Below are positions 3,517-59,068 of a stretch of DNA of 59,755 nucleotides, one piece after another (the first letter of the stretch is position 1; each line of letters begins with the position of its first letter). Below the pieces are notes generated by a model. It had not been told where the DNA came from and ran no database searches. It was given only the letters and a program-made list of their open reading frames with translations. Origin of the DNA: Patescibacteria group bacterium. GTDB taxonomy: Bacteria; Patescibacteriota; Minisyncoccia; Minisyncoccales; Staskawiczbacteraceae. The stretch spans positions 1-59,755 of the forward strand of contig JBBTQJ010000031.1 in assembly GCA_038065755.1 (NCBI GenBank), in the 5' to 3' direction. Made by a program: the position numbers and the translations under genes.

Positions 3517-4062
3517 TTAGATATTGGGGTTGTCGGCTAAAAACGCGCCGAGAGCACAGGGAATAATCCTTTCGCGATGGCATTTTACGGTTTTTTCCGG
3601 CAAATTATTCACCGGGAACCACTTGCCCCGCAGTCCTTCTTTTTCTTCAAACACGCAGAGGTATACGACAGAGAGAAACGTCCCCCTGACCTCTGGTTCT
3701 AATTTTGAAGGGTTGATATTGGCAACAAATCTAGTTGAAACAAGATTTGCGCCGAATTCTTTTTCAGATAATCTTCTTAGAACATCTTCAAAACTTTCTC
3801 CCGGCCGCATTATAGAACCGGGGCAGTGCCACTCGCCAGGATAGGCGGTGTCGTCAGGCGAACGTTGAACAAGATAAACTTGAATTTCCATAAGGGTTGT
3901 TGCGTCAATTTCCGGAAGATATCGTTGCAGACGGAGACAAACTGCCTCCACTGCTACGGAAACCGTGAGTTTGGCAAGAGCATTAAAAAACTCTGTGCCG
4001 TAAGGTTGTAAAGGATCAATTTTTTTTAAACCATCAATCAATTCGGGCGTGCCTTGGGCCAT
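3517..4062 (-). CDS. Nudix-fold protein with degenerate NudD/GDP-mannose-mannosyl-hydrolase-like box
   Basis: 181 aa. WHCPGSIMRPGESFEDVLRRLSEKEFG is co-linear with WHLPGGIIRFKEKMETRLKKVSEKEIG of the ORF at 11744. It is the only minus-strand gene in the first 48 kb. Two 60-nt lines I counted inside it are 48-50% GC, which is visibly richer than the flanks. Confidence 0.6.
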   Translation of the reverse strand: MAQGTPELIDGLKKIDPLQPYGTEFFNALAKLTVSVAVEAVCLRLQRYLPEIDATTLMEIQVYLVQRSPDDTAYPGEWHCPGSIMRPGESFEDVLRRLSEKEFGANLVSTRFVANINPSKLEPEVRGTFLSVVYLCVFEEKEGLRGKWFPVNNLPEKTVKCHRERIIPCALGAFLADNPNI

Positions 4063-18152: not shown

Positions 18153-19266
18153 AGAAAATAGTAAAATTTTATTGAGCGTCGCTATTTTAACTTACAACAG
18201 GGCCCAATGTTTGGAAAATCTTTTAGAAAGCGTTATGCCCCAGGCGGAAAAACTTAAAAAAGAAGTTGAAATATGCATTTCAAACAACAATTCACAAGAT
18301 AATACAGAAGAAGTTATAAATAGGTTTAAAGAAAAATACCCCGGACTTATAAATTACAATAAAAATAAAGAAAATTTGGGTTTTGACAGAAATTTTCTTT
18401 TAGCCGCAGAAATGTCAAAAGGGGATTTTGTGTGGACTTTTGGCGACGACGATTTAATGGCAGAAAACGCTTTAAACGAAATTATTGATTTTATTAAAAA
18501 AAATAGAAAAGAAGAAATAGGAATGATTTTTTCAAAAACAGAGTCTTATTTTATAAACAAAGGAACCGGGCAAAAAATAATCCATAGCGCAGGTGTGGAT
18601 AAAAATAAGCCGGAAATTTTTAAAATAGATAAAGAAGATATTATTTCAATGTCTTTTCCGGAGGTCTCTTTTATATCGTCATTAATTTTTAATAATAAAT
18701 TTCTTAAAGGGTTTTTTAAAGAAGACAGAGAAATAATTGAAAAAGCAGCCGGTAACCTTCATATTCATATGACATTAATAGTTTTAATGTTTTTAAAGTA
18801 TCCCAATATCAACGGTTTTTTTATGAATAAACGGCCATTAATCTGCCAGGAGATATATTTATACAAATCGCTTATTGAAAACAAATTTGCAGTGCATTAT
18901 AAAGAGCAAAAAGTATTAGACAGTTTTTTATTATCTTGCAAGTATATGAATGGCAGATACGATTATTTAATAATTAAAAGAGATAAAAAATTGAAGCAGG
19001 AATTTATTATAGATATGATAACAATGAGAGCTTTTAAAAGATTTGAGTATATTTCTTTTTTTGGCTGTTTAAAATTATTTTTCAAGAAAACAATATTTAT
19101 AGACGCTTTATTATTTTCTTTTATTTTTTTGATTCTTTTTTTAATTCCGCCGATAGTCTTGACCTCTTTGTATAAAATTTTATTAATAATCAAATACGGA
19201 AAAAAATGGAGATTTAAATGGAATATTGCAAGCTATATGTCTTCTTTCCCAGCTAAAGTTGTTTAA
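18142..19266 (+). CDS. family-2 glycosyltransferase with C-terminal membrane segments
   Basis: 374 aa with LSVAILTYNRAQCLENLL, FGDDD, and a hydrophobic C-terminus. Confidence 0.75.
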   Translation: MIDKENSKILLSVAILTYNRAQCLENLLESVMPQAEKLKKEVEICISNNNSQDNTEEVINRFKEKYPGLINYNKNKENLGFDRNFLLAAEMSKGDFVWTFGDDDLMAENALNEIIDFIKKNRKEEIGMIFSKTESYFINKGTGQKIIHSAGVDKNKPEIFKIDKEDIISMSFPEVSFISSLIFNNKFLKGFFKEDREIIEKAAGNLHIHMTLIVLMFLKYPNINGFFMNKRPLICQEIYLYKSLIENKFAVHYKEQKVLDSFLLSCKYMNGRYDYLIIKRDKKLKQEFIIDMITMRAFKRFEYISFFGCLKLFFKKTIFIDALLFSFIFLILFLIPPIVLTSLYKILLIIKYGKKWRFKWNIASYMSSFPAKVV

Positions 19267-44329: not shown

Positions 44330-46819
44330 ATGAGTATATTTTCTAATATTTTTGGAGACGCTAATAAAAAATATATAAAAGACCTTGGGCCTGCGATAGA
44401 AGAAATAAATCTTTTAGAAAAAGACTTTGAAAAATTATCTGGCAACGAATTAAAAGAAAAGACAGAAGAATTAAAAAAAGAACTAGCCCTAGGAAAAACA
44501 TTAGAAGATATTTTATCTCCTGCTTTTGCTTTGGTCAGAGAGGCCTCAAAAAGAAATTTAAACCAAAGGCACTTTGACGCGCAAATAATAGGCGGAATTG
44601 TTTTACACCAGGGAAAAGTTGCTGAAATGAAAACCGGAGAAGGAAAAACTTTAGCTGCCACCTTGCCCGCATATTTAAATGCGTTAGATGGCAAGGGGGC
44701 GCATATTATTACGGTTAACGATTATTTAGCCAAAAGAGACACGGTTTGGATGGGGCAAATTTATGATGCGCTTGGACTAAAAACAGGATGCATAACTCAC
44801 GAGGGAGGGTATGTTTATGACTCAAATTTTAAAATAGAAAACGACAAAGAGAGAGATATAGTAGGGGGATTTAAGGTGGTGCAGGAATTTTTAAGGCCCT
44901 GCTCAAAAAAAGAAGCATATTCATCCGATATTACATATGGCACAAACCATGAATTTGGTTTTGATTATTTGAGAGACAATATGATTTATGATTTGCAGGA
45001 AAAGTCTCAGCGCGGATTTAATTTTGCCATTGTTGACGAAGTGGATTCAATTTTAATTGACGAGGCAAGGGTGCCCTTGATAATTTCCGGCCAAAGCGAT
45101 GAATCAACGGAAAAATATTATCAGTTTGCTAAAATTGTAAGTTTTTTGAAAGAAAAAGAAGATTATGAAATTGACGAGAAAATGAAAACAGCGGTTTTCA
45201 CAGAGCAAGGCCAAGACAAAGCTGTAAAAAGCCTGGGTTTTGACCCTTGGCAGGATAACGATATTAATTCAACCCATCAGTTAGAGTCTGCTTTAAGGGC
45301 AAAGGCGTTGTTTTTAAAAGACAGAGATTATGTTGTAAAATCAGGAGAAGTAATAATTATTGACGAATTTACAGGAAGAATGCTTCCGGGCCGCCGTTGG
45401 TCTTCCGGGCTTCACCAGGCAGTAGAAGCAAAAGAAGGGGCCTTGATAAAACCAGAATCAAAAACTTTGGCAACCATTACTTTTCAAAATTATTTTAGGC
45501 TTTATAAGAAAATAGCTGGTATGACGGGCACTGCCCAGACTTCGGCCGAAGAGCTTGATAAGGTGTATAAGTTAGACGTTGTTTCAATCCCCACAAACAA
45601 ACCAATGCAAAGGCAGGATTTTCCAGACAGCATTTATAAAACAGAAGCAGGAAAATTAAAAGCCGCAATAAAAGACATAAAAGAGCTTAATAAAAAAGGC
45701 CAGCCGGTTTTAGTGGGAACAAGATCGGTTGAAAAAAATGAATATCTTGGAAAATTATTAGAGATTGAGGGAATTCCCCATCAAGTTTTAAACGCCAAAA
45801 ACCACGAAAAAGAAGGAGAAATTATTGCCCAAGCAGGGAGAGAGGGAGCTGTAACCATTGCCACAAATATGGCAGGCAGGGGAGTAGACATAATTCTTGG
45901 AGGCAATCCAAAAGACGAAGAAAAGAGCAAAAAAGTTTGCAAACTTGGAGGTTTGTTTGTTATTGGAACGGAAAGGCATGAGGCAAGAAGAATAGATAAC
46001 CAGCTAAGGGGAAGGTCGGGCAGGCAGGGAGATCCGGGGGCTTCGCAGTTTTATGTTTCTTTAGAAGACGATTTAATGCGTATTTTCGGCGGAGATAAAA
46101 TAAAGTCTGTAATGACGGCCTTAAATATGCCAGAAGACCAGCCTATTCAGGCCAATATGATTTCAGGGGCGCTTGAATCGGCCCAGCAAAAAATTGAAGG
46201 ATTTAACTTTGACGCCAGGCACCATCTTTTGGAATACGACGACGTAATGAACAAGCACAGGGAAGTTATTTATAAAAAAAGAAATGAAATTTTGGGACGT
46301 CAGACATACCAAAATATTGGGATGTCTGACGTCACAATGCCTGATGGTCAAAATAGTTTAAGGGAATATATTTTAAACATTATTAAAAAGGCAGGATATA
46401 AAGAAGAAGATTATTTAAAGAAAGAAAAAGAATTAGGAGAACAAAATATGCGTCAGCTTGAAAAATTTGTAAGTTTGCAAATAATAGACAATCTTTGGCA
46501 GGAGCACCTTTCAAATATGGAACATGTAAGGGATTCGGTCCGGCTAAGGGCATATGGCGGAAAAGATCCTTTGGTAGAATATAAAAATGAAGGCAGAAAA
46601 ATGTTTTACCAGCTTTTAGAAGAAATTGACACAAACATCGCCAACAACATTTTGAAAGCCAGTTTGCCTCAACAAAATACAGCATCGCGGAAATATATTG
46701 ATGGTAATGCGCGCGGAAAAAATAATAGTGCGACATCGGATGTCGCACAAACTATCGGCCGCAACGATCCCTGCCCTTGCGGTTCCGGCAAAAAATACAA
46801 AAAATGCCATGGGAAATAA
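44330..46819 (+). CDS. secA: preprotein translocase ATPase SecA
   Basis: 829 aa with MKTGEGKTLAATLPAYLNAL, the DEAD-like VDEVDSILIDEA, and the C-terminal zinc motif CPCGSGKKYKKCHG. Confidence 0.97.
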   Translation: MSIFSNIFGDANKKYIKDLGPAIEEINLLEKDFEKLSGNELKEKTEELKKELALGKTLEDILSPAFALVREASKRNLNQRHFDAQIIGGIVLHQGKVAEMKTGEGKTLAATLPAYLNALDGKGAHIITVNDYLAKRDTVWMGQIYDALGLKTGCITHEGGYVYDSNFKIENDKERDIVGGFKVVQEFLRPCSKKEAYSSDITYGTNHEFGFDYLRDNMIYDLQEKSQRGFNFAIVDEVDSILIDEARVPLIISGQSDESTEKYYQFAKIVSFLKEKEDYEIDEKMKTAVFTEQGQDKAVKSLGFDPWQDNDINSTHQLESALRAKALFLKDRDYVVKSGEVIIIDEFTGRMLPGRRWSSGLHQAVEAKEGALIKPESKTLATITFQNYFRLYKKIAGMTGTAQTSAEELDKVYKLDVVSIPTNKPMQRQDFPDSIYKTEAGKLKAAIKDIKELNKKGQPVLVGTRSVEKNEYLGKLLEIEGIPHQVLNAKNHEKEGEIIAQAGREGAVTIATNMAGRGVDIILGGNPKDEEKSKKVCKLGGLFVIGTERHEARRIDNQLRGRSGRQGDPGASQFYVSLEDDLMRIFGGDKIKSVMTALNMPEDQPIQANMISGALESAQQKIEGFNFDARHHLLEYDDVMNKHREVIYKKRNEILGRQTYQNIGMSDVTMPDGQNSLREYILNIIKKAGYKEEDYLKKEKELGEQNMRQLEKFVSLQIIDNLWQEHLSNMEHVRDSVRLRAYGGKDPLVEYKNEGRKMFYQLLEEIDTNIANNILKASLPQQNTASRKYIDGNARGKNNSATSDVAQTIGRNDPCPCGSGKKYKKCHGK

Positions 46820-46820
46820 T

Positions 46821-47285
46821 ATGAAAAAATTATTGACGCTTGTTATAATCTATCAGCATCCAAAAGTTCTGCTGGGAATGAAGAAGCGGGGATTTGGCCG
46901 AGGCAGGTGGAATGGTTTTGGCGGCAAGGTTTTGCGGGGAGAAACAATAGAAGATGCGGCAAAAAGAGAAATAAAAGAAGAAGCGGAAGTAGAGCCGGTT
47001 TATTTGGCAAAATCCGGAATCATAGAGTTTGAATTTCAGGGAAATCAGGAAATTTTTGAAGTGCATATTTTTAAGTCGGAAGATTTTTTGGGAAATCCAG
47101 TTGAAACAGAAGAAATGAGACCCCGGTGGTTTCATATTGATGAGATTCCATTCAAAGAAATGTGGCCGGATGATATATACTGGATGCCGTTATTTTTAAG
47201 CGGAAAGAAATTCAAAGGCAAATTTCTTTTTAGAGAACAAGATATTATTTTAAAACAAGAGCTGTTTTTAGTGAACGAAATTTAG
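46821..47285 (+). CDS. Nudix hydrolase, MutT/MTH1-like
   Basis: I chose the ATG at 46821, since the track start at 46698 overlaps secA. The Nudix box is GGKVLRGETIEDAAKREIKEEAEV. Confidence 0.8.
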   Translation: MKKLLTLVIIYQHPKVLLGMKKRGFGRGRWNGFGGKVLRGETIEDAAKREIKEEAEVEPVYLAKSGIIEFEFQGNQEIFEVHIFKSEDFLGNPVETEEMRPRWFHIDEIPFKEMWPDDIYWMPLFLSGKKFKGKFLFREQDIILKQELFLVNEI

Positions 47286-47914: not shown

Positions 47915-48584
47915 ATGGCAAAAAAAATTTCTAAACAGGTTAATATCTTAATTGGATCTAAAAAGATTATTTCAAGCTGTTTAAAAAGAGTTATAAAAAA
48001 TAACTCTTTTAATTATAGAACTTTTGGCGTGGACATTGAACCTCATATATCTTCTATATTGGTGGAAATTTTTAAGAAAAAAGGTCTTATAAAATCAGAA
48101 AAAGACTATGTTCTAGCCCCAGACAAAAACTATTTTTCCAGATTTTGAATTAAGATTGCCGCCATTTTTAGCTATAGAATATAAGTCGGGGAATAAAGTT
48201 AAATTGTCGGGAGGAAGATGGGTTAGTTGTAAAAATAGTAATAACGATATGGGTACTTTGAATACTTGGTTAAAGAAAATAAAAAGATTTGGAGACGAAA
48301 ATATTTATTATATTTTCGTTATTTATAAAATAAATAGCATAGATAAAAAACTCGTAGATGTGCAGATAGCCCCATTTTATAAATTTATAGGATTAAACAA
48401 GGTCGGATTACTTAGATATAGAGAAAAAGACGGAAATTTAAGGCCCAAAGATTTTGATGAGCCTTCTCCTGTTAAATCATTTAATCAATTCAAAAATTTG
48501 TTTGAAAAAACGATTATTTACCGTTCCACGAGAATAATTAAAAAACATCAGGCTATTTTAAAATCAATTAAATTTAAAAAATAG
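47915..48584 (+). pseudogene. probable PD-(D/E)xK restriction-endonuclease gene split by a 1-nt frameshift (track ORFs 47915-48148 and 48156-48584)
   Basis: The two ORFs are in different frames. The frame of ORF2 is open back to 48117 and there reads PQTKTIFPDFELRLPPFLAIEYK, which is PD-X13-E-Y-K. It converges on and overlaps the methyltransferase gene. A5 and T5 runs lie at the junction. Confidence 0.45.
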
Positions 48585-50075
48585 GGGATTGTCAAGCGGA
48601 TATACTCCTTCCTTTTCAGAAATAGTCAAATTTTTTAAATATTTAGATGTTTTACCGTTATGGTTATAAACATAGCCATTAGTGAGCCTATAGCTCACAT
48701 TTTTTATTTTATTTTCTATTATTGATTTATATTTAGGATCTATATCAATTCCTATAAAATGTCGTCCTAATCTTTTTGCAGCTGACGCCGTTGTTCCAGC
48801 CCCGATAAAAGGATCTAATACTATATCTTTTTCGTTTGTTGTCATCAATATTAATCTTTCCAACAATGGTTCAGGGAGTTGGCAAGGGTGTTCGTCTCTT
48901 CTATTTTTATGTCTTATTCTATGGATATCAGTCCAAACATCGCTCAATAATGCGCCAAGTGGATTTATTTGGCTTTTTTTTCCACCGTAATCTTTTATCA
49001 TTCCATTACAATGAGGGCATTTTTTATGCGGCGACCTGAGTTCATTAAATTTAAAACCTTTTTGGCTTTTTGTATAAAATAAGATTCCATAGTGTGCTGG
49101 AAGTAATGTTTTTCCAAGGGGTATGCTCATAGAGTCCCATGTAACCCAATGTTTAAAAAACGCAATTTTATTGAGATGATTAGCATAATAAATAAGCCAT
49201 TTAGGGATGTTGTGCACCAATATAGACCCTGTGGGTTTTGTTATTCTAACCATTTCGGTTAACCATTGTTCGCACCACTTAATATATTCTTCTTCGCTCT
49301 TTTTATCTTTGTAGTTGCCGTATTTTTTATTTAGGTTGAACGGGGGGTCTGCAAAAGTTATATCTACTGAATTATCTGGTATTTTTTTCATTATTTCTAT
49401 GGCGTCTCCACAAATAATTTGATCTATTGGTAATTCGGGGAATTTTTCGTTTTGATTAACTTTTCCTTTTTGTTCTGTATTTATACTGTTAATCACATCT
49501 ATAACAATTCCCTGTATATCAAATTTCCTGTTTTTATTTATAATTATTGGTTCAAATTTTTTATTTGCCGGCTGTAATCTGATGAAATTTCGTTCTCTGT
49601 AAAATTTTTTAAGCGTAGTCTCGCTATTATCAATAAGCGCCACAACCTTTTGTCCATTTTCTGCTGTATTTTGTTTTTTTATTAAAACAATATCTCCATT
49701 GTTTATATTTTCATCTACCATGCTGTTTCCAACCACCCTTAAAGCAAAAATTTCACCAGACTTTGGAAGTTTGTTGTCTGGCACGGCAATTGTTTCTTTT
49801 TGCTCAAACATTTCAAGCGGCTTGCCTGCAATTATTTCTCCCAAGAGGGGAATTTGAAACATTATTTGACCGATATTTAACTTAATTGATCTTGCTTTAT
49901 AATCATCTTTTTTTAAATACCCCTTTTCTATTAACGTTTCTACGTATTGATAAACTGTGGGCTTTTTTATTTTAAAATGTTTTGCCACTTCTTCATAAGA
50001 AGGGGAATAATCTTTTTCTTTAATATATTTTTTAATATAATCTAAAATTTGTTTTTGCTTAGGAGTTAATAACAT
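48564..50075 (-). CDS. fusion of a complete LexA-type repressor (wHTH + S24 autopeptidase) with a beta-class N6/N4 DNA methyltransferase
   Basis: 503 aa. Residues 1-~200 are LexA-like, with Ala83-Gly84 (EIIAGKP), Ser118 (GNSM) and Lys156 (TLKKF). Residues ~215-503 are methyltransferase-like, with DPPF at 243-246 and DPFIGAGTT near the C-terminus. Confidence 0.8.
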   Translation of the reverse strand: MLLTPKQKQILDYIKKYIKEKDYSPSYEEVAKHFKIKKPTVYQYVETLIEKGYLKKDDYKARSIKLNIGQIMFQIPLLGEIIAGKPLEMFEQKETIAVPDNKLPKSGEIFALRVVGNSMVDENINNGDIVLIKKQNTAENGQKVVALIDNSETTLKKFYRERNFIRLQPANKKFEPIIINKNRKFDIQGIVIDVINSINTEQKGKVNQNEKFPELPIDQIICGDAIEIMKKIPDNSVDITFADPPFNLNKKYGNYKDKKSEEEYIKWCEQWLTEMVRITKPTGSILVHNIPKWLIYYANHLNKIAFFKHWVTWDSMSIPLGKTLLPAHYGILFYTKSQKGFKFNELRSPHKKCPHCNGMIKDYGGKKSQINPLGALLSDVWTDIHRIRHKNRRDEHPCQLPEPLLERLILMTTNEKDIVLDPFIGAGTTASAAKRLGRHFIGIDIDPKYKSIIENKIKNVSYRLTNGYVYNHNGKTSKYLKNLTISEKEGVYPLDNPLFFKFN

Positions 50076-50208
50076 ATTGACAAGGTTTTTATTAATACTA
50101 TTATTATATTATACTAACATTTTACTAACCTTAAAAGATGTCAACCTGTGGATAACTTAAAATTAGTTGAAAAATAGAAATTGCTAACGGCGGTTTTTTG
50201 TTGCGCAG

Positions 50209-52639: not shown

Positions 52640-53668
52640 ATGAACAAATTAAATTATCCACAAATTTACACAAAACTTACAAAAGGCCTTTCTGAAAAAA
52701 CGAAAGGTATTTTTGAGCGCAGATTCGGTATAAAATCTAAAAACCCCGAAACTTTGGAAATGATCGGAAAAAGTATGGGGATTACAAGGGAAAGAGTGCG
52801 CCAAATAGAAGAGGCCGGTTTTAATTTTGTGAAAAAAAATAATAAAGAAACATTAGATGGCGTTTTTGCGGAATTCGCGGATTATTTTAAAAATAACGGA
52901 GAATTTAAAAAAGAAGAAGCTGTTTTAGAAGAACTGGGAGGAAAAAACCACAAGCCCTATGTTTTATTTTTGCTAACCTTGGGAGAGCAGTTTTCTAAAG
53001 TTTGCGAGAAAAAGGATTTTTATTATTTTTGGTCAACAATGCAAGACGCCAAAAACAAAGTAAGCCAAACATTAAAATCATTGGTTTTGGCTTTGCAAAA
53101 AATAGGCAAGCCTATATTTAAAGAAGAATTTTTAACAGAAATATCTTCAAGCCAAAATTTACCAGAGCCTGCTTTGTTTTCTTATCTTGAAGTTTCAAAA
53201 AAAATTCAAAACAACAGCGAAGGAAAAATTGGCTTGATTGACTGGCCGGAAATAAAGCCAAGGGGAGTAAAAGACAAGGCGTTTTTAGTTTTTAAAAAAC
53301 ATCAAAAGCCCTTGCATTTTACCAAGGTGGCAGAATTGATAGACCAATTGGGATGCAACGAGCCCAACAAAAAAACTTATCCGCAAACAGTTCATAATGA
53401 GCTTATTAAAGACCAAAGGTTTGTTTTGGTGGGCAGGGGAACATATGCTTTGAAAGAATGGGGATATGAGGAAGGAACCATAAAAGATGTTATCAAAAAA
53501 GTTTTAGAATCAAAAACCCAGCCGGCAAACAAAGAAGAAATTATAAAAGAAGTTTTAACCCAAAGATTAGTTGCCTCCAACACAGTGTTAATGAACCTAA
53601 ACAATAAAAAATATTTTGGAAAAGACGAACAAGGGAAATATTTTTTAAGAAAAACCCAAACAGCATAA
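52640..53668 (+). CDS. sigma-70 region-4-like HTH protein with C-terminal HARE-HTH-like domain
   Basis: 342 aa. LEMIGKSMGITRERVRQIEEAGF is sigma region 4.2-like. The C-terminal segment is FTKVAELI...VLVGRGTYALKEWG. Confidence 0.6.
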   Translation: MNKLNYPQIYTKLTKGLSEKTKGIFERRFGIKSKNPETLEMIGKSMGITRERVRQIEEAGFNFVKKNNKETLDGVFAEFADYFKNNGEFKKEEAVLEELGGKNHKPYVLFLLTLGEQFSKVCEKKDFYYFWSTMQDAKNKVSQTLKSLVLALQKIGKPIFKEEFLTEISSSQNLPEPALFSYLEVSKKIQNNSEGKIGLIDWPEIKPRGVKDKAFLVFKKHQKPLHFTKVAELIDQLGCNEPNKKTYPQTVHNELIKDQRFVLVGRGTYALKEWGYEEGTIKDVIKKVLESKTQPANKEEIIKEVLTQRLVASNTVLMNLNNKKYFGKDEQGKYFLRKTQTA

Positions 53669-53697
53669 ATTGCAGAATAATTGCAAATTAACTAAAG

Positions 53698-53727
53698 CAA
53701 AAAAATACCCGCTCGGGTATTTTTTTG
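53698..53727 (+). terminator. rho-independent terminator
   Basis: The stem is AAAAATACCC / GGGTATTTTT with a GCTC loop, followed by a T7 run. It lies 30 nt after the stop at 53668. Confidence 0.8.
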
Positions 53728-53742
53728 CTGTGTTGCGCGTTG

Positions 53743-53772
53743 TTGATTTCAAATAAATAGGGGGGTATAATA
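53743..53772 (+). promoter_or_regulatory. sigma70-type promoter (TTGATT-N18-TATAAT)
   Basis: Read directly. It is followed by the AT-rich inverted repeat and the 53866 operon. Confidence 0.5.
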
Positions 53773-53782
53773 AAGAAAGTTA

Positions 53783-53848
53783 AAAATTAAAAGTCAAAAG
53801 TTAAAAATATAATGACGCGCCAGCAATACTTTTAACTTTTAATTTTTG
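53783..53848 (+). repeat. 20-bp inverted repeat (1 mismatch) with a ~26-nt GC-containing loop in the leader of the 53866 operon
   Basis: The arms are AAAAATTAAAAGTCAAAAGT and ACTTTTAACTTTTAATTTTT. The loop contains GACGCGCCAGC. Confidence 0.6.
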
Positions 53849-53865
53849 ACTTTCAACTTGAAAAT

Positions 53866-54090
53866 ATGTCTTATTTTTATTTAGGAATTATTATTTTGTT
53901 TATTGCCACGGTTATTTATTATATAGGGATTTTCTCTTTAATTTTTTATTGGCACTTAAAAAAAATATCTTATATTATAGTTCCTCTTCTTTTTACCTTT
54001 AGATTCTTTTTTATGGGTTTTTTAATTGTATCAGCGGTTTCTCTTATATTGGAAAATTTGCCGAAATTAATAAGCTTAATGCAACGTTAA
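53866..54090 (+). CDS. small hydrophobic membrane protein
   Basis: 74 aa with two to three predicted TM stretches. It is the first gene after the promoter and inverted repeat. Confidence 0.55.
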   Translation: MSYFYLGIIILFIATVIYYIGIFSLIFYWHLKKISYIIVPLLFTFRFFFMGFLIVSAVSLILENLPKLISLMQR

Positions 54091-54098
54091 TATCTATT

Positions 54099-55508
54099 AT
54101 GGCAAAAGGCCTTCCTTCGTATTTATTTTGGCTAGACTGGGTTAAAAAAATTGTATGGGATTCTTTTTGGTGGGTAATTTTAATGCTCTTTGTTTTTTGG
54201 GTTCCTTTTTTAAGGGTGTGGTGGTGGTTTTTTGCTCCGTTTTTTCTTTCTATACAATTAAAAATTCTTTATTTATGGTGGATTGAATGGGATTACGATT
54301 ATCAAAATGCAAAATGGGCGCTTTTAGATATAGTTCCTCCCAGAGAAGTTTTAGCTCCTTTCAAAGCAATGGAAGACGTATTTTCAGCTGTTTGGCCCAT
54401 AATAGATGTGGCCAACTTTAGAGAAGCGTGGTGCGACGGCGAATTAACTAACGGCCCTTATTGGTGCTCTTGGGAAATTGCCAGCATTGAAGGAAAAATA
54501 CATTTTTATGTAAGGTGCCGAGAAGAGCATCGTCTAGTTATTGAATCCTCTCTTTATGCCCACTATCCCGACATAGAAGTTCATCAAGTGTCTGACTATA
54601 CCAAACTTGTTCCCCCAACGGTGCCCAACGAAGATTGGGATATGTATGGAGAAGATTGGGACCTGCACCGAAGCGATATTTTTCCCATAAAAACATACGA
54701 GAAGTTTTTTGAACCGCAGGGAGAAAAAATTTCAGCCGAAGAAAAAAGAATGGATCCTGTAATTGCTTTATTGGAAGGAATGTCAAGGCTTGGGCAAGGA
54801 GAACATTATTGGGTTCAGTTTATTACGGTTCCTATACAAGATCACGACGAACCAGATTGGAGGAAAGAAGGCGAGAGGGTAATTAATAAAATATCCAAGC
54901 GATCGGAAAAAAGAGAGTCAACTCTTTTTGAAGATTTAAGTTATATAGCCAAACAGGTTATTTTTGGTCCGGAAAAAGAAGGCAAGGGAGAGTCGGCGTC
55001 ATATTCTTGGGCGCCAACCCAAATAGACGAAGAAACTGGCGAGAGAGAGATGGCTATTACCCCCGGCGAAAGAGAAATTATTACCGAAATAGAAAATAAA
55101 TTAAAAAAGCCCGTTTACAGAACAACTATCAGGGGTGTTTATGTTGCAAGGCGGGAAAATTGGAAATCTCCCCATAAGGTGATTATGAGGTCTTATATGG
55201 GGCATTTTTCTACTATCAATTTAAACCATTTTAGATTTTCAGGAAAAACAAGGCCGAAAGTTCATTACCTCTGGAGAAAAAGAAGAGTTTTTCAAAGAGC
55301 CAGAAAAATGTTTAGAATGACCGTTTTAAGATTTCCTCCTTTGTTTCCCCAAAGAATGTCAGATGATTTGAATCCTATTTTAAGCACAGAAGAGATGGCA
55401 ACCCTGTTTCACTTCCCATTAAGAGTGACGGGAATGGTGACCCCGACAATGGTTAAAGTTGAGTCAAAAAAATCCGGACCTCCTCCAAATCTACCGGTTG
55501 ATGAATAA
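54099..55508 (+). CDS. membrane-anchored protein of unknown function (Trp-rich N-terminal TM hairpin plus a large soluble domain)
   Basis: 469 aa with WWVILMLFVFWVPFLRVWWWFFAPFFL. I recognise no domain. It is tightly linked to the downstream ATPase. Confidence 0.5.
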   Translation: MAKGLPSYLFWLDWVKKIVWDSFWWVILMLFVFWVPFLRVWWWFFAPFFLSIQLKILYLWWIEWDYDYQNAKWALLDIVPPREVLAPFKAMEDVFSAVWPIIDVANFREAWCDGELTNGPYWCSWEIASIEGKIHFYVRCREEHRLVIESSLYAHYPDIEVHQVSDYTKLVPPTVPNEDWDMYGEDWDLHRSDIFPIKTYEKFFEPQGEKISAEEKRMDPVIALLEGMSRLGQGEHYWVQFITVPIQDHDEPDWRKEGERVINKISKRSEKRESTLFEDLSYIAKQVIFGPEKEGKGESASYSWAPTQIDEETGEREMAITPGEREIITEIENKLKKPVYRTTIRGVYVARRENWKSPHKVIMRSYMGHFSTINLNHFRFSGKTRPKVHYLWRKRRVFQRARKMFRMTVLRFPPLFPQRMSDDLNPILSTEEMATLFHFPLRVTGMVTPTMVKVESKKSGPPPNLPVDE

Positions 55509-55525
55509 CATAATTAAATTTATTT

Positions 55526-57364
55526 ATGTCAAAAGATCTAACTTATATTGCTAAAACAAATTTTCGCAATAAGGAACAAAAATTCGGAATTAAAAGAACT
55601 GATCGGCGTCAGCACACGTACGTAATCGGAAAGACTGGAACTGGTAAGACTCAGTTTTTAAAAAATATGGCCTTGCAGGATATCAACAATGGGCAAGGGC
55701 TTGCTATTATTGATCCTCACGGAGAGTTTGTTGAAGAAATTTTAGACAATATCCCTCCTCACAGAATCAATGATGTGGTTTATTTTAATCCAGCGGATAT
55801 GGAATATCCTATTAGTTTTAATATTATGGAAGTGCAAGATCCAAGGTATAAGCATTTAATCGCATCGGGATTGATTGGCATTTTTACCAAAATATGGGCC
55901 AATGTATGGTCGGCTCGTATGGAATATATTCTTGCCAATTGTATTTTAGCTTTGCTGGATACTCCCGGCACCACGCTCTTGGGCATACCAAGAATGCTGG
56001 TTGATAGAGATTACAGGCAAAAAATAATTAATAACCTTAAAGACCCGGTGGTAAAATCATTTTGGATTAACGAATATGAAGAGTGGGAATCACGCTATCG
56101 CAACGAAGCCATTGCTCCCGTTCAAAATAAGGTTGGGCAGTTTCTGAATGTTTCTTTTGTAAGGAATATTGTCGGCCAAGCAAAGAACACTATTGATATT
56201 GATGAAATAATGAATAACCAAAAAATTCTGTTAGTTAATGTTTCTAAGGGAAGAATTGGCGAGGATAATTCAGCTATTTTGGGAGCTATGATCATTACTA
56301 AAATACAGTTGGTGGCAATGGAGCGCGTTAGAATTCCAGAAGATGAAAGAAAAGATTTTTATCTTTATGTTGACGAATTTCAAAATTTTGCCACAGATTC
56401 TTTCGTGAATATTTTATCAGAGGCCCGTAAATACCGCTTGAATCTGATTATTGCCCATCAATACGTTGGGCAGTTAGTCACCGACACAAGCACAGCTGTC
56501 AGGGATGCTGTTTTTGGCAACGTGGGCACTATGATTTCTTTCCGAATAGGAGCAGCTGACGCGGAATTTTTAGAGCCGGAGTTTACCCCGGAATTTTTGC
56601 AGAATGATTTAATTCGCTTAGATAACCGCAATATTTATATAAAACTTATGATAGACGGCATTACTTCCAGGCCATTCTCTGCCACAACTATTACTCTTGA
56701 CCCCGTTGTTAAAGATGATAAAAAACGAGAAAAAATAATTGAAACTTCCAGATTAAAGTATGCCCACAAGCTAAATATCGTTGAAAAAGAAATTAATCGT
56801 TGGGCAACAAACCAAGACGTTTCTGGCGCTCAAAACCCCTCTGATTTTTCTAACCCTCATAATTATTCCAAGCCTCCATATCAGCCGAAAATTCTTAGAT
56901 CTTCTGATTCTACAAAATTATACGATGTTAAATGTTCAAATTGCGGAAAAGACACCAAGGTTATTTTTGAGCCGATTGCCGGGAGGCCTGTTTACTGCAA
57001 ATCTTGTTTAAAAAAAAATTACCCGGTTAAATCTGCCGAAAGCGGTATTTCATCAGAGAAAAAACAATTTAATCGGATAAGAGCAGATCAACAGCAAAGA
57101 ACAGAGGCGGACTTGGGCAGAACAGGGAAAAATCCCGAGGAATCTGCGGCCTTAGGAGAATTAGGTATAGAATTTGAGCCTCAAGCAAAGATAGAAAATG
57201 TTTCTTTTTATAATCCGAAAAAAAAACAAGACGAACAGAAGCATGATAGTTTAAAAAGAAAAGAAATCAATTTGTCGGAATTAAGGCAAGCATTGGAGGA
57301 GTCTTTAAAGAGCGGTTTAGATTATAAAGAAAAAAGCTCAAAAGAAAAACTAGAAAACAAATAG
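55526..57364 (+). CDS. VirD4/TraG/TraD-like (type IV coupling-protein-like) P-loop ATPase with C-terminal CxxC-x17-CxxC zinc ribbon
   Basis: 612 aa with Walker A GKTGTGKT, Walker B LYVDEFQNF, IIAHQYVGQL, and the ribbon CSNC-X17-CKSC at 56933-57007. It has no TM segment of its own. Confidence 0.6.
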   Translation: MSKDLTYIAKTNFRNKEQKFGIKRTDRRQHTYVIGKTGTGKTQFLKNMALQDINNGQGLAIIDPHGEFVEEILDNIPPHRINDVVYFNPADMEYPISFNIMEVQDPRYKHLIASGLIGIFTKIWANVWSARMEYILANCILALLDTPGTTLLGIPRMLVDRDYRQKIINNLKDPVVKSFWINEYEEWESRYRNEAIAPVQNKVGQFLNVSFVRNIVGQAKNTIDIDEIMNNQKILLVNVSKGRIGEDNSAILGAMIITKIQLVAMERVRIPEDERKDFYLYVDEFQNFATDSFVNILSEARKYRLNLIIAHQYVGQLVTDTSTAVRDAVFGNVGTMISFRIGAADAEFLEPEFTPEFLQNDLIRLDNRNIYIKLMIDGITSRPFSATTITLDPVVKDDKKREKIIETSRLKYAHKLNIVEKEINRWATNQDVSGAQNPSDFSNPHNYSKPPYQPKILRSSDSTKLYDVKCSNCGKDTKVIFEPIAGRPVYCKSCLKKNYPVKSAESGISSEKKQFNRIRADQQQRTEADLGRTGKNPEESAALGELGIEFEPQAKIENVSFYNPKKKQDEQKHDSLKRKEINLSELRQALEESLKSGLDYKEKSSKEKLENK

Positions 57365-57367
57365 AAT

Positions 57368-59068
57368 ATGACTAAAATATGCCAAAATTGCAAACAGGAC
57401 TTTATCATAGAGCTTGACGACTTTGCGTTTTACGAAAAAATAAAAGTCCCGCCACCGACTTTTTGTCCCGAGTGCAGAATTGTCCGGCGCATGAGTTGGA
57501 GAAATGAACGCGCTCTTTACCGCAGAAAGTGCGACGCTACCGGCAAAGATATTATTACAATGTTCTCTCCCGAACAGCCTCTTTTGGTTTATGAAAGAGA
57601 TTATTGGTGGTCTGACAAATGGGATCAGCTTGCCTCGGGGCGTGATTATGATTTTTCAAAACCCTTTTTTCAGCAGTTCCGCGAATTATTTGAAAAAGCC
57701 CCCCTTCCCAATCTTGCCAATTCTAATGTTGTAAATTCTGATTATGGTAACCACAGCCTTGATATTAAGAATTGCTATCTTTTTTATGCCAGCAAAGGAT
57801 GCGAAGATACATTATATTGCGCCGGAGCTATAGATTGTAAAAATTCTCTTGATTTATACAAGACTCTCAATACAACTCAGTGCTACGACAATACTTTGTG
57901 CGGCGATTTAAACCGCGTTTTTTTCTCATATGACAGTGATGAAAGCGTCAGTTGCGACTTTCTTCATGCGTGTAAAAATATGATAGATTCTTTGGGTTGC
58001 ATAAATTTACGCAATAAATCAAACTGCATTTTAAACCAGCAATATACAAAAGAAGAATATAAAAAAGAACGGGCCAAGTATGATTTTGGAAGTTATAAGG
58101 CGCTTTGTGAATTTAGAAAAAAGTTTGCTGAATTTATAAAGGAATATCCAAGACGTTACGGTTTTATTTATAAATCGAAAAACTGCATTGGCGACAATAT
58201 TCTAAATTCTAAAAACGTGTATATGGGTTTTGATCTGTTTGGTGAAATTGAGGATAGTAAATATGTTATACATGGTTTTAGCGGCAAGGATTATTATGAT
58301 GCATATGGTTTTGGAGCAAACGCGAATAATTCTTATGAAGTCGTGGATACCGGAGATAACGCCACCCTTAATCTTTTTGCCGTTTTCACTCATTCCTGCC
58401 AGAATACAAACTATACTTATGCCTGCAAAAATTGCGCTAATTTATTTGGGTGCGTGGGGCTGCGCAGTAAAAAATATTGCATTTTAAATAAGCAATATAC
58501 CAAAGAAGAATATGAAACTCTTGCGCCAAAAATTATTGCTCATATGAAAAATATGCCTTATGTAGATAAACGGGGCAGAGCTTACAAATACGGCGAATTT
58601 TTCCCTACAGAACTTTCTCCTTTTGCTTATAACGAAACAATAGCCCAGGAATATTATCCAAAAACTAAATCAGAAGTTTTTGAAGCAGGGTATAAGTGGA
58701 GAGAGCCCGATGCAAAACAGCATGCCATTACTCTTCAACCAGCTGATCTGCCAGACCACATAAAAGATGTTCAAGATGACATTTTAAATCAAGTGATAGC
58801 GTGCGAACACAGAGGAAATTGCAATGAACAGTGTATGGGGGCGTTTAAAATTATTCCTTCTGAGCTTCAGTTTTACCGGGCAATGAACCTTGCTCTGCCA
58901 CGGTTGTGCTCTAACTGCAGGCACTATCATCGGCTTAGCCAGCGCACCCCGTTTAAGTTATGGGATAGAACTTGCGCAAAATGCGGAAAGGAAATTAAAA
59001 CATCATACGCTCCCGATCGCGAAGAAATTATTTACTGCGAGGCCTGCTACAATAGCGAAGTTGCATAA
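57368..59068 (+). CDS. Cys-rich protein with N-terminal CxxC...CxxC ribbon, two internal repeat modules and C-terminal CxxC-x17-CxxC ribbon
   Basis: 566 aa with CQNC-X24-CPEC. The duplicated motif is GC(I/V).LR.K..CILN.QYTKEEY at ~57971-58066 and ~58424-58516. The C-terminal ribbon is CAKC-X17-CEAC. Confidence 0.55.
   Translation: MTKICQNCKQDFIIELDDFAFYEKIKVPPPTFCPECRIVRRMSWRNERALYRRKCDATGKDIITMFSPEQPLLVYERDYWWSDKWDQLASGRDYDFSKPFFQQFRELFEKAPLPNLANSNVVNSDYGNHSLDIKNCYLFYASKGCEDTLYCAGAIDCKNSLDLYKTLNTTQCYDNTLCGDLNRVFFSYDSDESVSCDFLHACKNMIDSLGCINLRNKSNCILNQQYTKEEYKKERAKYDFGSYKALCEFRKKFAEFIKEYPRRYGFIYKSKNCIGDNILNSKNVYMGFDLFGEIEDSKYVIHGFSGKDYYDAYGFGANANNSYEVVDTGDNATLNLFAVFTHSCQNTNYTYACKNCANLFGCVGLRSKKYCILNKQYTKEEYETLAPKIIAHMKNMPYVDKRGRAYKYGEFFPTELSPFAYNETIAQEYYPKTKSEVFEAGYKWREPDAKQHAITLQPADLPDHIKDVQDDILNQVIACEHRGNCNEQCMGAFKIIPSELQFYRAMNLALPRLCSNCRHYHRLSQRTPFKLWDRTCAKCGKEIKTSYAPDREEIIYCEACYNSEVA

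Follow-up and report, generated by a model that had tools for sequence, protein, structure and literature searches.

We describe a gene of a Patescibacteria group bacterium in which a complete LexA repressor, including its S24 peptidase domain, is fused in frame to a DNA methyltransferase (MTase). It occupies positions 48564-50075 on the minus strand of contig JBBTQJ010000031.1; the whole 59,755-nucleotide stretch analysed is called the window below. In all loci of its type a convergent partner gene lies beside the fusion, and the partner has the predicted fold of a restriction endonuclease; this combination marks the fusion as the modification (M) subunit of a two-gene Type II restriction-modification (R-M) cassette, whose restriction gene (R) is frameshifted in the window. 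On balance we think it probable that a mobile Type II cassette here has a methylase with its own fused LexA autorepressor, and that damage-induced self-cleavage of this repressor would raise the level of M. Judged from sequence and context, the LexA module looks like the cassette's cis-acting, damage-sensitive repressor and not like a global SOS regulator.

The fusion protein and its convergent partner

A preliminary description of this DNA had read the gene as a complete LexA joined in frame to a methyltransferase, with a stop or frameshift between the S24 and methylase parts as the feared flaw. The reading frame proved to be open over all 503 codons, the junction contains neither a stop nor a frameshift, and the fusion protein and its DNA are identical in four independently assembled samples (L084-L087). 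The protein scores 168.9 bits against the NCBIfam lexA equivalog TIGR00498 (cutoff 110.95). The winged helix-turn-helix (HTH), the LexA hallmark residues, the linker and the beta-class N6_N4 methylase with its DPPF, CPHC and DPFIGAGTT motifs were all recovered where that description had placed them. Conservation was read from two alignments, A1 with 38 close fusion members and A3 with 46 distant fusions (representatives at 50% identity); the confidence of AlphaFold2 models is given as the predicted local distance difference test (pLDDT). The features of the gene are as follows.

48564-50075, minus strand: LexA-S24-MTase fusion gene, M subunit of the cassette; intact open reading frame (ORF), three Pfam domains, lexA equivalog, at least 109 full-length homologous clusters
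49890-50069, minus strand: LexA winged-HTH domain, residues 3-62 (Pfam LexA_DNA_bind PF01726, E 7.5e-12)
49824-49829, minus strand: codons of Ala83-Gly84, the predicted autocleavage bond; aligned with E. coli A84-G85 and invariant in alignments A1 and A3
49500-49850, minus strand: Peptidase S24 domain, residues 76-192 (Pfam Peptidase_S24 PF00717, E 6.5e-27)
49722-49724 and 49608-49610, minus strand: codons of Ser118 and Lys156, the catalytic columns by alignment, both invariant
49431-49484, minus strand: flexible linker, residues 198-215, predicted to be disordered (AlphaFold2 pLDDT about 31); the most variable and most gapped part of A1
48714-49367, minus strand: beta-class N6/N4 DNA methyltransferase core, residues 237-454 (Pfam N6_N4_Mtase PF01555, E 1e-52)
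48567-48698, minus strand: conserved C-terminal tail, residues 460-503 (YR..NGY.Y...SKYL.NLT.SE.EG.YP.DN), with columns 462-493 invariant in A1

The best solved relative of residues 2-195 is T. maritima LexA (3k2z, E 4e-32), and identity to E. coli LexA is 32% across 195 residues. In pairwise alignments with both proteins, A83-G84, S118 and K156 share columns with the E. coli A84-G85 bond and the S119/K156 dyad. The LexA half is confidently modelled (pLDDT 81-93; helices of the winged HTH 81-92), including the recognition helix at about residues 38-50, which reads PTVYQYVETL (pLDDT 86-92). Within A1, the winged HTH is the most variable domain and the methylase is nearly invariant, DPPF, CPHC and DPFIGAGTT being the same in all 38 members; A83, G84, S118 and K156 are likewise invariant. 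The cleavage bond and the Ser/Lys dyad are also retained in 46/46 fusions of A3, whose MTase partners belong to different classes. The fusion carries every residue required for LexA autocleavage and is apparently self-cleaving, and these cleavage residues are evidently under strong purifying selection.

In the methylase half, the PF01555 match spans model positions 1-220 of 221. Residues 218-458 find their best solved relatives in M.MboIIA, two unnamed methyltransferases (9c3u and 8urk) and CcrM; M.RsrI is also a relative in the Protein Data Bank (PDB). Motif IV (DPPF, residues 243-246) lies N-terminal to motif I (F423-G425-G427, the FxGxG at 423-427 in DPFIGAGTT, 421-429), which is the beta-class order, and CPHC is at 353-356. 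PADLOC classifies the methylase as MTase_II, and its Type II MTase profile PDLC03238 matches residues 119-470, thus including part of the S24 region. Between motifs IV and I, an insert (window positions about 48882-49028) holds H350, C353, C356, H385, H389, H396 and C398, invariant in 38/38 fusions. These residues may form a zinc site where the target is recognised; pLDDT there is an unreliable 35-48, and the model of the full fusion is poor in the methylase half (mean pLDDT 64.6), so neither the zinc site nor inter-domain contacts can be judged from it. The C-terminal tail, also of low pLDDT, is confined to the Patescibacteria cassette type, and alignments with relatives from other phyla mostly end at about residues 457-489.

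The gene that converges on the fusion appears in the window as two small ORFs on the plus strand, 47915-48148 and 48156-48584, without Pfam matches, and it overlaps the 3' end of M by 21 nt (48564-48584). An intact 225-aa partner from a related locus (L001) matched this region by tblastn in two frames, at 59% and 69% identity.

47915-48584, plus strand: frameshifted restriction endonuclease gene with a predicted EcoRV/SwaI-like PD-ExK fold, recognised by tblastn, family invariants and AlphaFold2/Foldseek analysis of a relative
48133-48137, plus strand: T5 run with the +1 frameshift, directly before the catalytic PD motif, as read in the sequence; intact relatives imply T4

The window reads AAC TAT TTT TCC AGA where relatives imply AAC TAT TTT CCA GAT, and the same frameshift is present in the four independent assemblies (L084-L087). 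A convergent overlapping partner gene was found in 23/23 loci with the Patescibacteria-type methylase, also called the candidate phyla radiation (CPR) type, and it is intact (222-247 aa) in 17/17 other loci examined. On an 804-kb contig of another organism the fusion has an unrelated neighbourhood, yet a convergent overlapping 225-aa gene follows it.

The partner family comprises 273 clusters, all named 'hypothetical', and since the protein had no match in Pfam or PADLOC, its identity comes only from structure prediction. The AlphaFold2 model has a pLDDT of 92.8 and a predicted template modelling score of 0.87. With this model, Foldseek returned 57 matches in the PDB at E <= 0.001; those listed, 50 in number, are without exception Type II blunt-cutting endonucleases. 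R.SwaI was the best (E 1.7e-6, template modelling score 0.54-0.61), followed by EcoRV, HincII and NlaIV. E42, P75-D76 and K90 are invariant in the family and E88 occurs in at least 90% of members, giving the pattern PD...ExK. On this confident model, the partner is predicted to be a Type II restriction endonuclease of EcoRV/SwaI-like fold. A functional endonuclease, as a Type II R-M system has, is lacking in this genome owing to the +1 frameshift; as its sequence reads, R is a pseudogene here, which leaves M a regulated orphan and the system a remnant. A terminator-like hairpin with a T-tract lies at 48682-48698 on the plus strand, about 100 nt beyond the R stop and antisense in the methylase 3' end, and may end the R transcript inside the convergent overlap.

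The genes that flank the cassette differ in every genome, tRNA or defence genes lie near some copies, and the MTase core is up to 60-70% identical across phyla, all of which argues for a mobile cassette. A tRNA-like sequence adjoins the R side in L009 and L026, and defence or toxin genes (AIPR abortive infection, AbiEii, HicA/UPF0150) occur near the cassette in L001 (8040-9866) and L092 (529-941 and 6918-7646). Such neighbours would fit a cassette that inserts into defence islands or hot spots of integration. The preliminary description had offered damage-coupled expression of an R-M remnant and a degraded mobile element as alternatives; the two merge into one, a methylase of a mobile Type II R-M system whose endonuclease is degraded. 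The further suggestion of a prophage element with a CI-like repressor was rejected: the neighbours are the housekeeping genes SecA, NUDIX, phosphoesterase and SecDF, and a scan of viral contigs gave bare MTase cores only, with no LexA fusion.

Natural deletion variants of the cassette exist. In L094 (P0114), the one locus inspected for a winged-HTH-MTase form of about 392-399 aa without S24, the convergent R is kept and so is an 11-bp direct repeat, TTTAGGTTATC-TTTAGGT. In L095 (P0120) an MTase alone, about 305 aa long and with no LexA remnant, still has its convergent R. P0113 and P0116 are likewise variants of this kind. A small XRE-type HTH gene ends at the R start codon, the position classic for a C-protein gene, in L013, L015, L016, L022, L091 and L093, beside a LexA-fused M; cassettes of this composition would have two regulators. 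The window cassette contains no C-protein gene, the phosphoesterase gene and R being only 51 nt apart, and the regions upstream of R are unrelated between loci and hold no repeat. Palindrome avoidance did not point specifically to a recognition site. Among 6-mers, GATATC showed the strongest depletion in the cassette loci (48 observed, 77.6 expected; ratio 0.62), yet it was rejected as non-specific, the ratio being 0.67 in the window, where R is dead, and 0.68 in unrelated loci with an MTase only.

Spread of the fusion and its LexA module

The preliminary description knew of no LexA-methyltransferase fusion. No paper on one was found either, as discussed below; uniqueness nonetheless fails on a condition which that description had itself set, since the fusion belongs to a large auto-annotated family. 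NCBI, JGI and UniProt already contain the architecture, labelled automatically as 'LexA repressor', 'site-specific DNA-methyltransferase' or the like. Grouped at the 90% identity level, the full-length three-domain proteins recovered by a word-indexed search form at least 109 clusters, 63-91% identical to the fusion, with names including 'transcriptional repressor LexA [Patescibacteria group bacterium]', 'Candidatus Tagabacteria' and 'site-specific DNA-methyltransferase'; those clusters of the same architecture that bear an organism name are Patescibacteria. The full fusion is found in about 20 species-representative genomes, all but one labelled Patescibacteria, among them Nealson-, Falkow-, Doudna- and Giovannonibacteria and Parcubacteria. 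The methylase core alone (about residues 215-470) is scattered at 60-70% identity across many bacterial and archaeal phyla and viral contigs.

The LexA module itself (residues 1-205) was searched exhaustively with phmmer against 1.84 billion representatives, which yielded 279 hits at E <= 1e-30. The best matches, at 44-60% identity, are mostly long proteins of 378-841 aa with the module at the N-terminus, and standalone LexAs of about 200 aa start at about 46% identity. LexA_DNA_bind and Peptidase_S24 were detected in 46/46 long representatives. Their C-terminal parts matched the following Pfam families, in counts where one protein may match several.

N6_N4_Mtase: 30 of 46 long LexA-fused representatives
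Eco57I: 6 of 46
N6_Mtase: 4 of 46
MethyltransfD12: 4 of 46
C5 DNA_methylase: 3 of 46
MmeI_Mtase: 3 of 46

Counting that of the window, at least five MTase classes carry the module, with beta, gamma, alpha and C5 enzymes among them. At the loci of five other-class fusions M and R are again convergent, with partners that include RE_AccI and RE_Alw26IDE, and an XRE-type HTH gene (HTH_3, C-protein-like) stands before R in two of the five. One LexA-fused relative in UniProt is a 615-aa 'LexA repressor'. In an unbootstrapped neighbour-joining tree of LexA modules drawn from the 150 best hits, 41/43 fusion modules fall in one clade together with only 3/79 LexAs of standalone length. The nearest named standalone LexAs come from Gemmatimonadales and Deltaproteobacteria, and the named members of the fusion set are Patescibacteria. 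The fused LexA modules appear to be essentially one dedicated lineage.

The fusion promoter and the surroundings of the cassette

The region upstream of the fusion start codon holds three elements.

50112-50129, minus strand: putative operator of the LexA module, GTTAGTAAAAT-GTTAGTA, a two-copy direct repeat of 11-bp period that extends into the -10
50108-50113, minus strand: TATAAT -10-like hexamer of the M promoter, overlapping repeat 2, as read in the sequence
50147-50155, minus strand: invariant DnaA-box-like 9-mer TTATCCACA, then TTGACA at 50139-50144; recognised by its recurrence at fusion promoters

A two-copy direct repeat with an 11-bp period lies upstream of the fusion in 18/18 Patescibacteria-type loci, 25-66 nt before the start codon, and a -10 resembling TATAAT or TATACT abuts or overlaps repeat 2 in most, not all, related loci. 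When six fusions of other methylase classes were added to these 18, an exact period-11 repeat of at least 6 nt was present in 22/24 promoters, as against 2.0% of 4568 control windows; period 11 was the only one enriched among the repeat periods tested. Allowing up to 2 mismatches, no second operator copy was found in the 59.7-kb window. The idea that LexA steers where methylation is placed found no support, with one operator copy in 60 kb.

The repeat unit changes with the recognition helix, as compared at the helix positions aligned with E. coli LexA residues 43-45, in classes that are partly non-independent phylogenetically.

Helix H-E/Q-H: repeat unit TTCGG
Helix H-Y-H: repeat unit TTCGA (2/2)
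Helix H-F-H: repeat unit TTCTA (4/4)
Helix H-H-H: repeat unit GTTCTA
Helix Y-Q-Y (window): repeat unit GTTAGTA

Helices that start with 'PTV' pair with TTAG, and those with 'STV/STI' pair with TTCG. Its conservation, its position and this covariation with the helix lead us to regard the period-11 repeat as the putative operator of the fused LexA module. Direct-repeat LexA boxes of the same geometry, GTTC-N7-GTTC, have been documented in Alphaproteobacteria (PMC8565304).

The 9-mer TTATCCACA is a perfect DnaA-box consensus and occurs three times in the window, where 0.42 copies are expected. Across 258 kb of cassette loci, 16/21 copies lie at -43 to -86 of a fusion start, in either orientation, and copies also stand ahead of fusions with C5, Eco57I-type and gamma-class methylases. 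The box was rejected as an MTase or endonuclease target, since it precedes unrelated MTase classes and contains no palindrome; being shared by fusions of unrelated methylase classes, it belongs to the promoter of the LexA module. The box is invariant while the winged HTH and the repeat vary, which leads us to speculate that it is bound by a conserved host factor, with DnaA as the natural and most obvious candidate. The other exact window copies are at 18594-18602 (minus strand), within a family 2 glycosyltransferase (GT2) gene, and at 52654-52662 (plus strand), 14 nt into an ORF for a sigma70_r4/HARE-HTH protein, where the box may sit in the real promoter or 5' region of that gene.

On the plus strand, antisense to the fusion gene, 50077-50104 forms a near-consensus sigma-70-like promoter (TTGACA-16-TATTAT, 11/12). 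The fusion start codon is overlapped by its -35, and transcription from it would cross the putative operator and the DnaA-like box in the direction of secD; the cassette may have here a promoter that faces outwards or competes. Many related loci (L001, L004, L005, L008, L088-L091 and L093) conserve the corresponding 'GTCAA' beside the ATG.

In the window the cassette stands between SecA, NUDIX and metallophosphoesterase genes on one side and SecD and SecF on the other. The fusion was correctly described as one of only two minus-strand genes in the window, the other being a NUDIX gene at 3517-4062. The NUDIX ORF beside the cassette (46698-47285, plus strand) has 195 aa when read mechanically from a TTG within the secA 3' end; public calls give 158 aa with a start further downstream (L084), and the longer form is probably an over-extension. 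A glycan/polysaccharide biosynthesis cluster of about 42 kb (163-42933) lies almost wholly on one strand. It encodes WbqC, a NeuB-cupin protein, several epimerases/dehydratases, two DegT aminotransferases, FkbM/TylF-type methyltransferases, glycosyltransferases of families GT1, GT2 and GT4, a 1281-aa flippase-glycosyltransferase fusion, a thiamine pyrophosphate enzyme, an ATP-grasp enzyme and six radical S-adenosylmethionine proteins, two with SPASM and one B12-binding. The cluster is unusually elaborate for a reduced genome. Downstream of SecDF, 52640-59068 encodes the sigma70_r4 and HARE-HTH protein, a 469-aa protein without a Pfam match and, at 55526-57364, a TrwB/VirD4-like coupling ATPase with a treble-clef zinc finger, which a 566-aa protein shares; these genes may be part of a patescibacterial type IV secretion or DNA-uptake machinery.

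The proposed circuit, its alternatives and known systems

In the circuit that we favour, a fused dimer held together by S24 would set its two winged-HTH domains on the 11-bp-spaced repeats over the -10 of the M promoter, and repression at this operator would hold M at a maintenance level. DNA damage, including double-strand breaks made by the cassette's R at under-methylated sites, would give rise to filaments of RecA on single-stranded DNA, and these would stimulate self-cleavage at Ala83-Gly84 through the Ser118/Lys156 dyad. With the winged HTH severed, the M promoter would be derepressed and more methylase made, and the S24-MTase fragment would be released as well. Protective methylation would then be restored, perhaps with a simultaneous damping of R by convergent transcription of M. 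In a naive host, M would first be made in a burst, until repression sets in. What we infer is that the module binds the repeat, that cleavage depends on RecA, which way the regulation runs and that its purpose is feedback against autoimmunity.

Several observations weigh against this circuit. The lineages without S24 (L094) or without any LexA (L095) keep R, so that damage input would be a dispensable, accessory layer. TTGACA stands 25 nt from TATAAT, a non-canonical -35/-10 spacing, and a promoter scan called no minus-strand sigma-70 promoter for M. The invariant TTATCCACA box has no place in a model of autorepression. The tree that unites the fused modules carries no bootstrap, and the helix-repeat classes share some ancestry. 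The window contains no recA, second lexA or other SOS gene that we could find, and the fusion itself passes the NCBI LexA equivalog threshold.

Among the alternatives, the one that survives best takes the LexA module as a dimeric DNA-binding autorepressor only, like the N-terminal domain of M.SsoII or M.Ecl18kI, with S24 serving to dimerise and with no damage-induced cleavage, or with a trigger other than RecA. Fused-repressor MTases do function without proteolysis (PMC12707154), and the winged-HTH-MTase variant that lacks S24 retains both the operator repeat and R. Dimerisation, however, has no need of the cleavage residues, yet Ala-Gly, Ser and Lys never vary in 38 + 46 sequences whose identity otherwise falls to about 30-40%; such invariance would be difficult to account for if catalysis played no part. 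We regard this alternative as unlikely.

Cleavage could instead act chiefly on the enzyme. The intact fusion would be tethered, inactive or dimeric, and loss of the winged HTH would free an S24-MTase to work genome-wide or would alter its stability through new degrons. The cleavage site does separate the DNA-binding domain from all else, the linker to the MTase is flexible, and E. coli LexA fragments turn into protease substrates once cleaved. Against such a switch, a single high-affinity site is unable to sequester many enzyme molecules, and an operator over the -10 favours transcriptional control. As the main function of cleavage we find it rather improbable; it is compatible with the favoured circuit, not exclusive of it.

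Could the fusion be the cell's sole LexA, a master SOS repressor that has acquired a methylase? Its operators would then be expected genome-wide, ahead of SOS genes such as recA and uvr. The score above the curated lexA equivalog cutoff and the NCBI name LexA speak for this, as do the small genomes of Patescibacteria and the fact that neither the window nor the flanks of related loci (3-10 kb per side) contain a second lexA. The genomic context, however, changes in every genome while the linkage to the endonuclease is invariant, the same LexA clade sits on at least five MTase classes, and variants without S24 or without LexA exist. Only a single operator copy lies in 60 kb, and the operator sequence differs among close relatives, a difference not expected of a conserved regulon motif. 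We therefore give this role little credence. That two adjacent genes were merged by assembly or gene calling is barely conceivable even for a metagenome-assembled genome, given a continuous ORF, identical DNA in four independent assemblies and more than 100 full-length homologous clusters from many samples and sources.

A wider reading, which we advance tentatively and with less than even confidence, is that a LexA lineage was domesticated by Patescibacteria R-M systems as a covalently attached damage sensor and was shuffled onto at least five MTase classes, along with its own promoter made up of direct-repeat operator and perfect DnaA box; such systems would sense their own breaks, and possibly replication status through DnaA, to adjust protective methylation.

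R-M systems must hold methylation ahead of restriction, or the host is killed, and the known safeguards are C proteins, fused HTH repressors, antisense RNAs and promoter methylation. A self-cleaving LexA on the methylase would add DNA-damage feedback and tie the SOS signal directly to epigenetic self-protection. If this is true, proteolysis would be a way, not recognised before, in which R-M systems control their homeostasis and establishment. The fusions also have a bearing on how the ultra-small Patescibacteria, with their many R-M and defence islands, cope when cassettes are often gained and lost. The large and diverse family offers a natural set of orthogonal repressor/operator pairs, whose helix-to-operator code is directly testable. 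In these phyla, hundreds of proteins that bear the name 'transcriptional repressor LexA' probably belong to R-M systems as methylases and are no master regulators of the SOS response, and such misnaming would distort reconstructions of SOS regulons. A full-text literature search, the coverage of which excluded work on Patescibacteria SOS networks, found no description of a LexA-methyltransferase fusion, and a 2025 review of R-M biology includes fused-repressor methylases and never mentions LexA or S24 (PMC12707154). What appears to be new here is a fused-repressor methylase with a predicted SOS-type autoproteolytic switch.

The closest documented systems are the MTases with a fused repressor that control R-M transcription, as in SsoII, Ecl18kI and EcoRII (PMC12707154, PMC2760811, PMC3978073). 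Like the fusion, enzymes of the M.SsoII/M.Ecl18kI/M.EcoRII/M.MspI type begin with a DNA-binding domain, which a flexible linker ties to the MTase. By binding an operator in the promoter of its own gene, that domain is believed to set the level of M, and of R (PMC3978073, PMC2760811, PMC12707154); the operator-like repeat over the -10 would follow the same logic. The SsoII type, however, has an HTH of about 70 aa on C5 MTases, palindromic operators, divergent R and M promoters and no protease. The fusion has a whole LexA with S24, a direct-repeat operator and several MTase classes, and its R and M are convergent with a 3' overlap in place of divergent or overlapping promoters. C proteins (C.PvuII and others) provide the transcriptional timing and homeostasis of R versus M that the fused LexA would also provide; they differ in being separate small XRE-family HTH proteins that are co-transcribed with R and do not sense damage.

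With the SOS repressor LexA of E. coli and T. maritima, the fusion shares the two-domain fold, the cleavage-bond and dyad columns and a putative operator in its own promoter, and direct-repeat boxes are known for alphaproteobacterial LexA. It differs from SOS LexA in its 300-aa C-terminal methylase, its link to an endonuclease instead of SOS genes, its place in a mobile cassette, an operator that varies among close relatives and the absence of a detectable regulon in the available sequence. S24 repressors of mobile elements (lambda CI, SetR of SXT, and LexA acting on integron integrases and colicins) let a mobile element read the host SOS response through RecA-stimulated autocleavage, as the fusion would do. 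Repressors of the lambda CI/SetR type are free-standing and control lysis, transfer or toxin genes; in the fusion the sensor is covalently joined to the enzyme it would regulate, and the element is an R-M system. The proposed circuit would thus combine the logic of the dual-function MTase repressors SsoII, Ecl18kI and EcoRII with an S24 switch of the LexA/CI type.

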